This document shows, in pieces, positions 8,988 to 28,917 of a stretch of 64,000 nucleotides of DNA; within the stretch, counting starts at the first letter, position 1, and every line of letters begins with the position of its first letter. The notes beneath the pieces were generated by a model. It ran no database searches. It was not told the origin of the DNA and was given only the letters and a program-made list of their open reading frames with translations. The stretch is taken from NCBI GenBank assembly GCA_050486205.1, contig JBJHCW010000008.1, forward strand, positions 5,219 to 69,218, in the 5' to 3' direction. The stretch comes from Gammaproteobacteria bacterium (GTDB taxonomy: Bacteria > Pseudomonadota > Gammaproteobacteria > Pseudomonadales > Pseudohongiellaceae). The translations under genes were made by a program, and so were the position numbers.

Positions 8988-9936
8988 GTTCCCGGTCGAT
9001 GGCCTGGAATATCCGGGAGCGCAGCGGCACCGCCTCATTGACCTTGTGGTGCCGCATGCCTTCCACCATGACAATGTTCAGGCGGCGGAACTTTTTCCGG
9101 ACCTGACGCAGGTTGTAGCGCCAATCCACGGTGCCGTCGATGTCACCCTGCACAACCAGTGTGGGTATGTCGCAGGGCGGATAGGCATGAAATTCCTGCT
9201 GCCAGTCGATCAGCGCTCCAATCCATTGCCCGGCGATGACTCGTGGCTGCAGCGGATCATCCTCGCGCAGAAACTGCAGAAATTCCGGGTCAGAACTGTT
9301 GTGGGAAAAACGTCGCGGTACCGTGGTGATGAATCGCCGCCGCACACTGTAGGCATACTTCACCCATAACCAGCGTCTGGGCCGCACCAGTGGTCCGAGC
9401 AGGAACAGTCTGTCCATATCCGGGTAGTCCGGATCCAGGGTGCTGGCCCGATGCAACACGTAGTCCATGGCGATGCCGGCACCCATGCTCTGCCCCAGCA
9501 GATACCAGGGGCGGGGCAAGCCAGCGTCCCGGGCCAGACGGGCCACACCGGCAAACACATCACGGTAACGCGAATAACGATCAATCGAGACCGGCTCGCC
9601 GCTGGACAGCCCATGACCGGGCAGGTCCGGCATGATCACCGCCAGCTTACGCTCCAGGCAAAAACGCATGACATGACGATACAGCCCACTGTGGTCAAAG
9701 TAGCCGTGCAGTATCAGTACCGTGCCTTCGGGATTTTCCGGCTTCAGACAGTGGCAGGCCAGACGGTAGCCACCGACATCAACATAACCAAAATGATGGG
9801 ATTTCTGCAGCTCGGGCAGATCCACACCGTAATGGCGGATGTAGACCTGCTCCGGTTCGGTGAAGCGGGTGTCGGTCGAAAAGTCGATGGGCCGCAACGC
9901 CGCCTTCAGCGCCGCGGCCTCCTGATCACCAAACAT
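8965..9936 (-). CDS. alpha/beta-fold hydrolase (lysophospholipase/monoglyceride-lipase-like)
   Basis: HG oxyanion motif LILHGYFDHSG and nucleophile elbow LLGQSMGAG. The start is ambiguous (ATG 9936 or TTG 9945) because the 5' end lies inside a 13-nt tandem array. The 3' end overlaps serA convergently by 23 nt. Confidence 0.75.
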   Translation of the reverse strand: MFGDQEAAALKAALRPIDFSTDTRFTEPEQVYIRHYGVDLPELQKSHHFGYVDVGGYRLACHCLKPENPEGTVLILHGYFDHSGLYRHVMRFCLERKLAVIMPDLPGHGLSSGEPVSIDRYSRYRDVFAGVARLARDAGLPRPWYLLGQSMGAGIAMDYVLHRASTLDPDYPDMDRLFLLGPLVRPRRWLWVKYAYSVRRRFITTVPRRFSHNSSDPEFLQFLREDDPLQPRVIAGQWIGALIDWQQEFHAYPPCDIPTLVVQGDIDGTVDWRYNLRQVRKKFRRLNIVMVEGMRHHKVNEAVPLRSRIFQAIDRELRTESGS

Positions 9937-9975
9937 AGTCACCAAGCATAGTCACCAAGCATGGCCACCAAACAT
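9924..9975. repeat. 4 x 13-nt tandem repeat (minus strand ATGYTTGGTGRYY) filling the fba-hydrolase junction
   Basis: On the minus strand ATG occurs at 9975, 9962, 9949 and 9936, exactly 13 nt apart. The units are ATGTTTGGTGGCC, ATGCTTGGTGACT (x2) and ATGTTTGGTGATC. Confidence 0.95.
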
Positions 9976-9976
9976 G

Positions 9977-11026
9977 TCAGCCTTCTTTGGCGTAACGTTC
10001 AGCCATCGCCTCCAGACTGTAGATCTTGCCGATACGATCTATCTGACCGGCCGTACCAAATGCTTCCAGTCTGTCCTTGACGATTCCTTTCATGGCTTTT
10101 ATGGTGGGGGTGAGGAATTTGCGCGGATCGAACTCAGCCGGGTTCTCGGCCAGGAACTTGCGAACTGCGCCGGTGGACGCCAGTCGCAGGTCGGTATCGA
10201 TATTGACCTTGCGTACCCCGTGGCGGATGCCTTCCTGAATTTCTTCCACCGGCACACCATAGGTCTCCGGGATTTCACCACCAAACTCATTGATTACCGC
10301 CAGCCATTCCTGCGGCACTGATGAGGAACCGTGCATGACCAGATGCGTATTGGGAATGCGCTGGTGAATTTCCTTGATACGCTTGATGGCCAGGATGTCA
10401 CCTGTGGGCGGACGACTGAATTTATAGGCCCCATGACTGGTACCCACTGCAATGGCCAGTGCGTCCACACCCGTGGCTTTGACAAAATCTGCCGCCTCTT
10501 CCGGGTCGGTCAGCATCTGCTCCATGGACAGCTTGCCCTCGGCGCCAATACCATCTTCCTCTCCGGCCATACCGGTTTCCAGCGAGCCCAGGCAACCGAT
10601 CTCACCTTCCACTGACACACCACAGGCATGGGCCATTTCCACGGTCAGGCGTGTGACCCGTACATTGTAGTCAAAATCGGTTGGTGTCTTGCCGTCCTCT
10701 CCCAGCGAGCCGTCCATCATCACCGAAGAGAAACCCAACTGAATCGACCGCTGACACACTGCCGGGGATACACCGTGATCCTGATGCATGACAATGGGAA
10801 TGTGCGGAAACTCCTCGATGGCCGCTTCAATCATGTGCTTGAGAAATCGCGACCCGGCGTATTTCCGGGCACCGGCAGATGCCTGGAGTATGACAGGACT
10901 GTGCGCTTCGTTGGCAGCTTCCATGATTGCGCGCGTCTGTTCCAGATTGTTCACATTGAATGCCGGCACACCGTAGCCGTGCTCGGCCGCGTGATCCAGC
11001 AACTGTCGTAGACTGATGAGCGCCAT
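9977..11026 (-). CDS. fba: class II fructose-1,6-bisphosphate aldolase
   Basis: 349-aa ORF with N-terminus [29 protein letters not shown] and zinc ligand regions VMHQDHG and [10 protein letters not shown]. It is the last gene of the tkt-epd-pgk-fba block. Confidence 0.93.
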
Positions 11027-15347: not shown

Positions 15348-15449
15348 GGGTCGGGAGCTCCTGTCGGGGGGACGGCTTGTTCGGAAAGGGCGTATTTTCC
15401 CGCATTACGCCTCAGGATGCCAGTGCAGGGGAGCCTTGATGAGCTGCGA

Positions 15450-16775
15450 TCAGCGCATCTCCAGTCGCAGGTGCTGCTGCACATGATGGCGCCACACGTC
15501 CGGCACACCTGCCTTGCTGGCATAGTCCGGCCAGCGCCGCAGCACGGCAGCGACCTCTTCAAGGATCTGCCCGGCACGCCCCCGTTTCATGGATGCGGTG
15601 GCAGCACAGGCGCGCAGGTCATCCAGACTGAAATCTTCGCGCTTGCCATTGACCGACATCTGGTGACGGGCAGTCCATGCGCCCTGCGGGTTGTAGCTGA
15701 ATGTCAGATCAAAAGCCGGCGACAGGGACCACTGGCCCGACTGGTCCATCAGAAAAGCAATGTTCTTGGTGTGATCATCCTGGTTGCGGGCCACAATATT
15801 AAAAACCATGCGGCGAAACTGCTGTTCGATCTCCGACATTGACAGGCCCAGGCGTCGCATCACCAGCAGCGCCTGCTCATAACTCCATGCCCCGGCCGCG
15901 TTGTAGTCCATGTGTGCCATCGCGCAAAGAGACTGCATGTGCAACTTGCCACCATCGGCGGTGCGATCGAAGCGCCGGGTCATGAAATGTTGCCGCCCGC
16001 CTTCGGCCAGCAGCCGACAGGGCGTCATGACAATACCGGCATCACGGGCCATCAATGAGTAAGCGTATTCAATCAGGCCATAACCCTGGGGGTCGTTCAG
16101 TTCCCGATCGCGATTGCCGCTGACACCGTCGAACTTGAGCAGCCAGTGCTCGAATCCCTCGCCCGCATCCAGTTGGCCCGAACGCACTTCGCCGGTTTCG
16201 GGATGCCAGGCGATGACTGCCTTGGCCCGGGCGCCGCCGGCCGAGGTGCCCACGCGCAGAATGTCACGCATGCCACTCTGCGCCCGACGGTCATCCAGCG
16301 AGACCTGAAGCGCCTGACGCTGTGACAGGATGTCCGACGCCAGGGCTACCAACTGGTCAATCTGCAGGCTGCGCGCCTCGGTCGCCCGCGGGCCGGTGAC
16401 CGGCGCAAACTCAAGCGCGCCCATGCCCCGACGCCCGGTGTAACAAAGTCGTTCCACGGCATTGAAAGACGCCGGCGTGCGGCCCTGGCTGGCCAGCCAG
16501 GCATCAATCAGTGCATTGCCAAAACGATCCGGCAAGGCGTCAGCGAGCAGGCCGGGCAGGCCGTGAAAAGCGGCAGGGGGCAGATCCGGGAAACGGAAAA
16601 TTCGCTGTGCGGCCGGGGCCTGCGCCGCCGGCAAAGGCATGGTCAGCGGTGCGACCTGAATGCCACTGCGGGCAAAGGCCGGATCGTATTCGAATGTCGC
16701 CACCTGCTCGTCCGGCGCCAGAGCAATCGCCCCGATGGTACGCCCCCACAGACGCACTTCGGCAAGACTGGTCAT
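15450..16775 (-). CDS. hipA: HipA-family type II toxin (Ser/Thr kinase)
   Basis: 441-aa ORF with a HipA N-terminal coupling domain (EVRLWGRTIGAI) and kinase catalytic loop NQDDHTKNIAFL. Its ATG overlaps the hipB stop (ATGA at 16772-16775). Confidence 0.88.
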   Translation of the reverse strand: MTSLAEVRLWGRTIGAIALAPDEQVATFEYDPAFARSGIQVAPLTMPLPAAQAPAAQRIFRFPDLPPAAFHGLPGLLADALPDRFGNALIDAWLASQGRTPASFNAVERLCYTGRRGMGALEFAPVTGPRATEARSLQIDQLVALASDILSQRQALQVSLDDRRAQSGMRDILRVGTSAGGARAKAVIAWHPETGEVRSGQLDAGEGFEHWLLKFDGVSGNRDRELNDPQGYGLIEYAYSLMARDAGIVMTPCRLLAEGGRQHFMTRRFDRTADGGKLHMQSLCAMAHMDYNAAGAWSYEQALLVMRRLGLSMSEIEQQFRRMVFNIVARNQDDHTKNIAFLMDQSGQWSLSPAFDLTFSYNPQGAWTARHQMSVNGKREDFSLDDLRACAATASMKRGRAGQILEEVAAVLRRWPDYASKAGVPDVWRHHVQQHLRLEMR

Positions 16776-17164
16776 GATTCATCCTCAGCCCAGTGCCACT
16801 CCGATGCCGCCTCACCGGAGGCCGTCTCACCGGAGCCCGTCTCAGTTGAGGCCGGTCGGCGCCGGGCACGTTGACGGGGCTTGCCCTGGGAGCGGATCAG
16901 CTGCATCGGGCTTGGGCCAAGCGGCGGCACCAGTTGCGCCAGCCCCGGCAGCAGGCCAAGCACACGCAAGACCCGCACCAGGCTGGTGGTCTGACTGGTC
17001 TCACCAGCCTCCATCCGTTCAATGGTTCGCTTGGAAACACCTGCCTGTTCTGCCAGCATGGCCTGGGTCAGGTCATTGGCAATCCGGTGCCGGGCCAGTC
17101 CCTCACCCAGACGGGCAAGCACCTCATCGTCTGTATACAGCTTGTACTCATGCATTTTGTTCAT
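16772..17164 (-). CDS. hipB: HipB-like XRE-family HTH antitoxin
   Basis: 130-aa ORF with HTH LTQAMLAEQAGVSKRTIERMEAG and a long acidic C-terminal tail ending EWHWAEDES. It is translationally coupled to hipA. Confidence 0.82.
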   Translation of the reverse strand: MNKMHEYKLYTDDEVLARLGEGLARHRIANDLTQAMLAEQAGVSKRTIERMEAGETSQTTSLVRVLRVLGLLPGLAQLVPPLGPSPMQLIRSQGKPRQRARRRPASTETGSGETASGEAASEWHWAEDES

Positions 17165-17170
17165 GGCGTT

Positions 17171-17296
17171 CAGATGTCAGATGTCAGATGTCAGATGTCA
17201 GATGTCAGATGTCAGATGTCAGATGTCAGATGTCAGATGTCAGATGTCAGATGTCAGATGTCAGATGTCAGATGTCAGATGTCAGATGTCAGATGT
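17171..17296. repeat. perfect heptanucleotide microsatellite (CAGATGT)x18
   Basis: 126 nt of uninterrupted 7-nt periodicity counted directly. It starts 6 nt upstream of the hipB ATG (17164). Confidence 0.99.
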
Positions 17297-17495
17297 TGGC
17301 ATGATTTTCGTCTTAAATGTCGATTTAATCGATTATTATGCCTATATTCGTCATATATTGCGATATATAAAGATATATAAAGATATTATTTTGTCGTCAT
17401 ACTTTACGATATATGGCATATTATACTTATATTTCGCATTATATTACGACTAAATATGGTTTTTGATTCATTCAGGGCATCACCAGAAGCAAAGC
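17297..17495. other. AT-rich structured spacer between hipBA and sahR
   Basis: There are 29 G+C in the 120 nt 17341-17460 (24 percent). It contains palindrome TCGATTTAATCGA (17320-17332), tandem GATATATAAA x2 (17362-17381), and the direct repeat CGTCATA-N5-CGATATAT at 17349-17368 and 17395-17414. Confidence 0.9.
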
Positions 17496-17511
17496 ATCAA
17501 AATATTTTGAT
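17496..17511. promoter_or_regulatory. 16-bp perfect palindrome ATCAAAATATTTTGAT, candidate SahR/ArsR-type operator
   Basis: The sequence is self-complementary as read directly. It overlaps the predicted -35 of the sahR promoter, 54 nt upstream of the sahR ATG. Confidence 0.55.
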
Positions 17512-17534
17512 ATAGATAAAATAATTGGTATAGT
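17507..17534 (+). promoter_or_regulatory. sigma70-type promoter of sahR-metK operon
   Basis: -35 TTGATA (17507-17512), 16-nt spacer, and an extended -10 TGgTATAGT (17526-17534), about 30 nt upstream of ATG 17565. Confidence 0.55.
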
Positions 17535-17564
17535 GCGCGCCTCGACACACAATGATCCAGGGCC

Positions 17565-19744: not shown

Positions 19745-19779
19745 CAGAGGGCAGAGGGCAGATGACAGATGACAGATAG
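19745..19779. repeat. 5 x 7-nt tandem array CAGAGGG CAGAGGG CAGATGA CAGATGA CAGATAG
   Basis: Read directly. It begins 3 nt after the metK stop codon and has the same CAGAKGN heptamer family as the x18 array at 17171. Confidence 0.9.
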
Positions 19780-28839: not shown

Positions 28840-28917
28840 CAGGGTTACAGGACAGGGTTGCAGAACAGGGTTGCAGAACAGGGTTGCAGAAAAGAGTGCA
28901 GGCAAGAATGCAGAAAA
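28840..28917. repeat. 13-nt tandem repeat CAGGGTTGCAGAA (4 good plus 2 degenerate units)
   Basis: Units lie at 28840, 28853, 28866 and 28879 (three are identical). Decayed units lie at 28892 and 28905. The array sits between the GGDEF-EAL stop and the comM start. Confidence 0.93.

Follow-up and report, generated by a model that had tools for sequence, protein, structure and literature searches.

A perfect heptanucleotide array, with the unit ACATCTG in the sense of the gene that follows it, stands directly before the start codon of hipB, the antitoxin gene of a hipBA-like toxin–antitoxin module, in the place of a Shine-Dalgarno (SD) sequence, and is almost certainly part of the transcribed leader of this gene. 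It lies in a window (the whole stretch of DNA that was analysed) of 64,000 nucleotides, whose MetK protein shows 90% identity to that of Pseudohongiella spirulinae, placing the host in the Pseudohongiellaceae. The array belongs to known kinds of repeats, namely tandem repeats of 5′ leaders and heptamer repeats adjoining start codons. Nevertheless, no description of a hipBA leader containing a simple sequence repeat was found in the literature, which agrees with the sequence-only reading made earlier from the letters of this DNA, where no such description was known for hipBA. In the interpretation that we prefer, to which we assign about an even chance, the array is a leader repeat made by slippage that has replaced the SD sequence and would serve as an unstructured landing platform for ribosomes, independent of such a sequence. 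If the array does only this, it offers a clean and tractable case of the long-noted puzzle of heptamers at start codons.

The heptamer array and the hipBA genes

The array and the features surrounding it are listed in Table 1. An exact regular-expression search over the window returned (CAGATGT)x18 on the plus strand with no mismatch, and Tandem Repeats Finder called the tract with a period of 7, 18.1 copies, 100% matches, and 0 indels; both searches bear out the perfect 18-unit array described in the sequence-only reading. The array is flanked by ...AAATCATGCCA on one side and ACGCCATGAAC... on the other. It is the one long array of the window, which contains in addition short CAGAGGG/CAGATGA heptamers before ahcY. 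A chance origin of the array is excluded, because its unit is found only eight times elsewhere in the 64 kb, both strands summed.

The length of the periodic tract is exactly 127 nt, and 127 is the maximum k-mer of many short-read assemblers. Since an array longer than k = 127 would collapse to 127 nt, the number of 18 units may be a lower bound and the true number may be higher; the existence of the array is unlikely to be an artefact of assembly, but its exact length is likely to be one. The sole other assembly of the strain, Logan SRR31311414, is 100% identical to the window across 2662 nt, and its contigs end within the array, with k−1 = 30 nt of the repeat on each end. Because the contigs break there, this assembly is not independent evidence and gives no copy number.

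In the direction of hipB the array has TGA in all three frames and is devoid of ATG, GTG, and TTG, while its plus strand is open in every frame, and therefore three ORFs encoding MSDVRCQ repeats appear on the plus strand, antisense to hipB. A real plus-strand protein was rejected, as these ORFs exist only since the unit is open in all frames; the list of ORFs and a frame check thus confirmed both the absence of plus-strand stops and the artefactual nature of the ORFs, as had been proposed.

The genes located downstream of the array have the organization of a hipBA module, with a gene for an HTH (Xre-type) antitoxin immediately upstream of a Couple_hipA/HipA_C kinase gene and overlapping it by 4 nt. 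The DDHTKN motif (DDHxKN) of the catalytic loop of HipA aligns with DMHLKN of the HipA_C/HipT structures, and close homologues of the protein are named HipA-family toxin by NCBI. Among solved structures HipA matched only distant HipT/HipA_C chains (ca. 1e-7); these matches were discarded as a clue to the leader, of which they say nothing. Orthologous proteins begin with MNKMHEY, MNKTHEY, and MANKEHQ, which supports the hipB ATG. Read in the direction of hipB, the junction is ...ACATCTG-AACGCC-ATG and has no purine-rich SD sequence, so that the claim of a 6-nt gap without such a sequence was correct, whereas SD sequences are seen for many other genes of the window, hipA included.

Table 1. Features of the hipBA locus, in positions of the window
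Feature	Position	Strand	Remarks
HipA-family kinase toxin gene (hipA)	15450..16775	-	441 aa; Pfam Couple_hipA (6e-18), HipA_C (9e-52)
hipB-like HTH antitoxin gene (hipB)	16772..17164	-	130 aa; Pfam HTH_31 + HTH_3; NCBIfam couple_hipB below its cut-off
SD sequence of hipA, GAGGA	16782..16786	-	6 nt before hipA ATG, inside the hipB 3′ end; sequence GCTGAGGATGAATCATG
15-nt (5-aa) tandem repeat in the HipB C-terminal tail	16806..16844	-	2.6 copies (Tandem Repeats Finder)
Junction of array and ATG, AACGCC	17165..17170	-	6 nt; no SD sequence
Heptanucleotide repeat	17171..17296	-	(ACATCTG)x18 in hipB sense, (CAGATGT)x18 on plus; periodic tract 17170-17296, 127 nt
Four 16-bp operator-like palindromes, TCG-N10-CGA	17308-17323, 17348-17363, 17394-17409, 17434-17449		repeat family D2
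−10 candidate nearest the array, CATAAT	17335..17340	-	for hipBA
Two further −10 candidates, both TATAAT	17420-17425 and 17438-17443	-	upstream of the array
Divergent sigma-70-like promoter, TTGATA-16-TATAGT	17507..17534	+	predicted to drive the arsR-family/SAM-methyltransferase gene, then metK, ahcY

A second repeat of the module is found within the coding sequence, in the part encoding the C-terminal tail of HipB. This 15-nt repeat (T/A-S-G-E-like) has 2.6 copies in the window and 3.7 in the orthologous locus L123, and the HipB of another one, L124, is shorter there by ca. 10 aa. The tail of E. coli HipB is a degradation signal for Lon, and by analogy the variation in tail length could affect the stability of the antitoxin.

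Promoter region and leader of hipBA

Upstream of the array with respect to hipB lies a spacer of 268 nt with a G+C content of 31%, within a region of 58%. It contains four palindromes, spaced by 40, 46, and 40 nt from start to start, and matches to their strict pattern, TCG-N10-CGA, are confined to this spacer in the 64 kb, with 0.08 expected. Four equivalent palindromes, read by eye, are present in L124, which aligns to the spacer of the window, and L122 has similar sites. Probably they serve as operators for HipB, their consensus differing from the E. coli one. The hipBA genes of E. coli form an autoregulated operon with four HipB operators of the consensus TATCC-N8-GGATA, and a layout like the present one is to be expected of a hipBA promoter that is autoregulated through several such sites. 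In both systems the gene for a HipA-family kinase follows, and overlaps, that of an HTH antitoxin, and four spaced palindromes lie in the promoter region; the systems differ in the palindrome motif and in HipB itself, which in the window has 130 aa and a repetitive tail. We know of no leader repeat in E. coli hipBA.

Because the four palindromes and all the −10 candidates lie upstream of the array, the latter is almost certainly a part of the transcribed 5′ leader, which would have at least ca. 160 nt. A standard promoter scan found no minus-strand promoter inside the array or 3′ of it, and a promoter in this position was rejected, the only sign of one being a −35-like hexamer, CTGACA, with no acceptable −10 sequence at 16–18 nt. 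The positions of the −10 candidates and the palindromes bear out the claim that the array separates the hipB ATG from the only plausible promoter and operator region. On the other side of the spacer, the divergent promoter region is conserved in L127 and L122.

The hipB leader is unusually unstructured. For this leader and the first part of hipB the minimum free energy amounts to −34.9 kcal/mol, vs. −49.7 ± 4.1 in dinucleotide shuffles (z = +3.6), and for the array alone as RNA z = +3.56; in either case none of the 200 shuffles was less stably folded. A complementary arm with which the repeat might form a hairpin was not found in the hipB leader, and a search of the 64 kb at gathering thresholds detected no Rfam family. 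A match of the repeat to mir-999 (E = 0.068) is weak and was regarded as spurious.

The lack of structure bears on an analogy drawn in the sequence-only reading, which had likened the array to the (ATCTTTC)n repeats of the hmw1A and hmw2A genes of Haemophilus influenzae. Both arrays consist of perfect heptanucleotide repeats and separate the start codon from the promoter, which is a putative one in hipBA, and that of hmw is transcribed within the leader, with expression following the number of units (PMC12721329). In hmw1A and hmw2A, ten repeats pair with a G-rich arm, and the hairpin is cut by RNase III (PMC12721329). The hmw repeats are thus one arm of a long hairpin, whereas the hipB array adjoins the ATG and replaces the SD sequence. 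A hairpin of the hmw type was rejected for hipB, and because the leader is so unstructured the hmw mechanism, which needs a long 5′-UTR hairpin cut by RNase III, is ruled out; this part of the analogy was not borne out. The systems differ also in what they control, an adhesin of a pathogen in one case and a toxin–antitoxin module of a free-living bacterium in the other.

In the contingency-locus interpretation, put forward in the sequence-only reading by analogy with hmw1A/hmw2A, the array might have been selected as a hypermutable rheostat of the dosage or ratio of HipB and HipA, giving rise to heritable and reversible heterogeneity in dormancy or persistence. Perfect arrays of 18 units are expected to slip at high frequency, the hypermutability assumed in that reading being a sound expectation, and a heptanucleotide example comes from Pseudomonas. 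The position of the array in the putative leader is in keeping with such a role, and since hipA has its own SD sequence and hipB has none, changes in the leader could shift the ratio of toxin to antitoxin; the repeat of variable copy number in the HipB tail also speaks for it. On the other hand, the hmw mechanism depends on a stable 5′-UTR hairpin and RNase III (PMC12721329), which the unstructured hipB leader does not match; the host is a free-living, marine-type gammaproteobacterium and not a host-adapted pathogen of the sort in which contingency loci are typical; and the negative autoregulation of hipBA should buffer the dosage. Selection for a rheostat appears unlikely to us. Quite improbable, in our estimation, is the specific course of events in which the number of units could set the ratio of HipB to HipA synthesis, and slippage would produce heritable, reversible subpopulations differing in HipA-mediated dormancy. 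If the number of units did tune this ratio, the locus would represent contingency-type control of a toxin–antitoxin module in a free-living marine bacterium, and a form of slippage-based bet-hedging tied to toxin–antitoxin dormancy, of which no description was found in the literature.

Orthologous loci and other leader repeats

Three close hipBA orthologues, all from related Pseudohongiellaceae, were compared with the window. In L122 the locus is syntenic, comprising ahcY, metK, and the arsR/methyltransferase gene, then the divergent hipB–hipA pair, and tkt; its HipA is 75% identical, and its spacer of 229 nt contains similar palindromes and lacks the repeat. The contigs L124 and L127 overlap and come from one metagenome; their hipB shows 90.9% nucleotide identity to that of the window, and the same four operator-like sites are followed by ...CATGCCTCCTGTGGGGATCC-ATG, an ordinary leader with the SD-like GGGGA, the position of the junction being occupied in L124 by the SD-like TGGGGATCC. 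In L123, whose hipB is 91.3% identical, the junction is GAGAGGCATGCC-ATG, again SD-like, and between the last operator-like site and this junction lies an unrelated 13-nt tandem repeat, (GGTTTTTATGAAA)x4.2. Each unit of the latter (L123 positions 38–91) carries a small upstream ORF of the form AAAGG-N5-ATG, and the stop codon of the last of these ORFs overlaps the hipB ATG (CCATGA).

Judging by these alignments, the leader is evolutionarily labile: independent remodelling of the 30 nt before the hipB start codon has taken place in three lineages, in which the operators can still be aligned, and in the window the heptamers have evidently replaced the segment bearing the SD sequence. Such repeated remodelling in lineages ca. 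91% identical in hipB counts in favour of a rheostat. If it is read in this way, the changes at the hipB start (the 7-mer, the 13-mer with its small upstream ORFs, and the plain SD sequence) would, together with the tail repeat, reflect selection on the dosage or stability of the antitoxin. It should be noted, however, that the differences distinguish lineages of ca. 91% nucleotide identity in hipB and are not copy-number variants of one array. No such variants were found, which counts against a rheostat: exact-protein look-ups with HipB, HipA, and the ArsR-family methyltransferase gave only the same strain, broken at the array, the relatives have other leaders, and a metagenome scan with HipB gave one distant match (54% identity). 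The cluster member P0122 was rejected as a comparator of copy number, as it belongs to an unrelated contig. Irrespective of the reading adopted, the sister lineages provide natural comparators, with an SD leader, a 13-mer leader, and a repeat-free leader.

In a further set of relatives, L128–L134 (91–92% MetK identity), hipBA is absent from this site. Between tkt and the cluster of the arsR-family/SAM-methyltransferase gene, metK, ahcY, and metF, an interval corresponding to positions 15348–17564 of the window, these relatives have an ORF of 119 aa or of 67 aa. The absence of hipBA from the same site indicates that the module is accessory and dispensable.

The hipB array is not the only repeat of its surroundings, at least three other tandem repeats being located in leaders within the 64-kb window. 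Degenerate CAGAGGG/CAGATGA/CAGATGT heptamers lie directly before the ahcY start (19745–19777), with a unit that is the reverse complement of the hipB-leader unit or differs from it by one base; they are also found in the metK–ahcY spacers of L122, L128, and L134 (relatives at 91–92% MetK identity) and are absent from the two closest relatives, L126 and L127. Two 13-nt tandem repeats of ca. four copies each occupy minus-strand intergenic leaders at 9926–9979 and 28840–28891, each just 5′ of an SD sequence and a start codon. With several such repeats in one window, the lineage is generally prone to repeats in leaders.

The array could accordingly be a neutral product of slippage, a chance expansion in a repeat-prone lineage with no role of its own, tolerated since in this orientation it brings in no start codon and since hipBA is an accessory module under its own control. 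The other leader repeats of the window (the ahcY heptamers and the two 13-mer arrays) and the dispensability of hipBA, absent from the site in L128–L134, speak for this reading, as does the excess of heptameric repeats in many bacterial genomes, which may have causes related to the polymerase (PMC4692102). It accounts less well for the loss, through the array, of the SD sequence of an antitoxin whose under-expression should be toxic, with both genes still intact, or for the persistence of the degenerate heptamers of the ahcY leader in relatives at 91–92% MetK identity. On the whole we consider a neutral origin rather unlikely, but a serious rival. Should neither tuning by unit number nor replacement of the SD sequence hold, the array would be an ordinary intergenic repeat in a repeat-rich lineage.

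Heptamer arrays before other genes and the proposed mode of initiation

Arrays of the same unit are widespread. In species-representative genomes scanned for (CAGATGT)x4, at least 119 loci were found, in other species; the matches listed include Acidobacteriota, Bacteroidota, Planctomycetota, cyanobacteria, Thiotrichaceae, Shewanella, and others, often with several ACATCTG arrays per genome mixed with related heptamers, and only ca. three of the loci among them have 15 copies or more. For 98 arrays of (ACATCTG)≥4 with enough flanking sequence, taken from the matches listed, the position of the array end was compared with the starts of ORFs of 100 aa or more: it fell between −6 and +12 nt of such a start in 24 of the 98 in the ACATCTG sense and in only 7 in the opposite one. 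This strong bias of orientation and position, which includes essential genes, speaks against a purely neutral product. A simple explanation that calls for no function is that arrays in the reverse orientation, which would give a leader one ATG per 7 nt, could have been selected against.

At these other sites the junction is CATCTGA-TT-ATG or CATCTGA-AA-ATG, with no room for an SD sequence, and the genes that follow code for EPSP synthase, FolD, malate dehydrogenase, NadC, DnaJ, Nuo subunits, and UDG. As housekeeping genes sit behind such leaders, translation must work from them. A preference of ACATCTG arrays for toxin–antitoxin or HTH genes was rejected, the downstream genes being diverse housekeeping ones, and no enrichment of toxin–antitoxin, HTH, or surface genes was seen 3′ of the arrays among the matches listed, which also counts against a contingency locus. 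Given these housekeeping genes and the at least three other leader repeats of the window, there is no need to regard the array as an adaptation peculiar to hipBA or one that serves persistence.

The sequence of the unit itself does not appear to be special. In viral contigs ACATCTGx4 gave 4 matches and three composition-matched heptamers gave 24, 0, and 16; as ACATCTG is no commoner than these controls, nothing points to a sequence-specific function, and the idea of a special sequence-specific ACATCTG family was rejected, the more so since the at least 119 loci are scattered over many phyla. The finding that other heptamers are as common in viral contigs, or commoner, fits a neutral origin. 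It also weakens the proposal that the array is a set of binding sites, in which an RNA-binding protein, a small RNA, or a DNA-binding protein would read CATCTGA and hipBA would belong to a global post-transcriptional network, as MacGregor hypothesized for TAACTGA repeats (PMC4679880). Many identical tandem sites placed right at the translation initiation region would suit a regulator, and the unit shares CTGA, and five of seven positions, with TAACTGA, related CTGA heptamers co-occurring in the same genomes. Nevertheless, no candidate binder was identified, the unit lacks the GGA motif recognized by CsrA, there is only one long array in the 64 kb, and the apparent CTGA family may be no more than mutated forms of the anchor unit with which the loci were retrieved. 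A regulator of this kind is highly improbable.

The closest parallel to the hipB array is offered by the TAACTGA repeats, intergenic direct repeats of marine Beggiatoaceae, cyanobacteria, and Bacteroidetes, which form long arrays in some taxa (MacGregor 2015, PMC4679880). They have stops in all forward frames, are open in the reverse direction, and lie a few nucleotides before start codons; SD sequences are rare there, predictions gave no RNA structure, and no functional theme unites the genes behind them (PMC4679880). They were proposed to act in translation via S1, Csp, or CsrA-like proteins (PMC4679880). The hipB array likewise ends near a start codon over the expected ribosome-binding site, lacks an SD sequence, contains stops in all forward frames and none in the reverse orientation, and has no predicted RNA structure. 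Its unit is different, CATCTGA (a rotation of ACATCTG) being identical to TAACTGA in 5/7 positions when aligned on CTGA, and so is its abundance, with one 18-copy array in 64 kb vs. 169 TAACTGA sets of 2–6 copies in the Maribeggiatoa genome (PMC4679880).

More distant parallels concern other heptamers. In Nostoc PCC 7120 heptamers occur in 3–8 copies near start codons or promoters (bioRxiv 10.1101/2022.06.06.494920), their units differing from ACATCTG. Like the hipB array, the heptamers of Nostoc and Xanthomonas are contiguous and located within tens of nucleotides of start codons, sometimes overlapping them; their length differs among close relatives, and a regulatory role is suspected. The G-rich heptamers of Xanthomonas and Nostoc form quadruplexes (PMC4692102), which ACATCTG cannot do. 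Tandem heptamers are found also 5′ of ctxAB of Vibrio cholerae, where the copy number of the TTTTGAT heptads was studied in relation to expression (bioRxiv 10.1101/2021.05.14.444153); in the part of that report available to us they are promoter elements recruiting transcriptional regulators and are not described as a transcribed leader beside the ATG.

Returning to the reading of the array as a substitute for the SD sequence, we infer transcription through the array, the mode of translation, the variability of copy number, and the effect on expression, and propose the following course of events. Replication slippage would have generated the array in the leader of the putatively autoregulated hipBA operon, at the site taken up by an ordinary SD leader in the closest relative. 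The resulting (ACAUCUG)18 RNA would be rich in pyrimidines and A, free of start codons, and furnished with UGA in every frame, and would end 5–6 nt before the AUG. Being unstructured, it may act as a landing platform for ribosomes that do not use an SD sequence, as proposed for repeats of the TAACTGA type, with ribosomal protein S1 or a cold-shock-type RNA-binding protein as possible helpers of initiation. HipB would thus still be made without an SD sequence, hipA retaining its own. Slipped-strand mispairing would alter the number of units, and thereby the length of the leader, with a graded rather than on/off change in HipB output, which would be a by-product and not necessarily the selected purpose. 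Against this proposal, less HipB might be made once the SD sequence is lost, a deficit for which autoregulation would compensate, and the other leader repeats of the window fit a mutational tendency of the whole lineage. Since the antitoxin located downstream must be translated for the cell to survive, the locus is well suited to a test of such repeats as SD-independent landing pads for ribosomes.

It is worth mentioning that in two pairs of loci from different species, L008/L091 and L043/L105, (ACATCTG)n stands at the starts of apparently orthologous genes in different copy numbers, which suggests that ACATCTG arrays can persist at one site over long periods.
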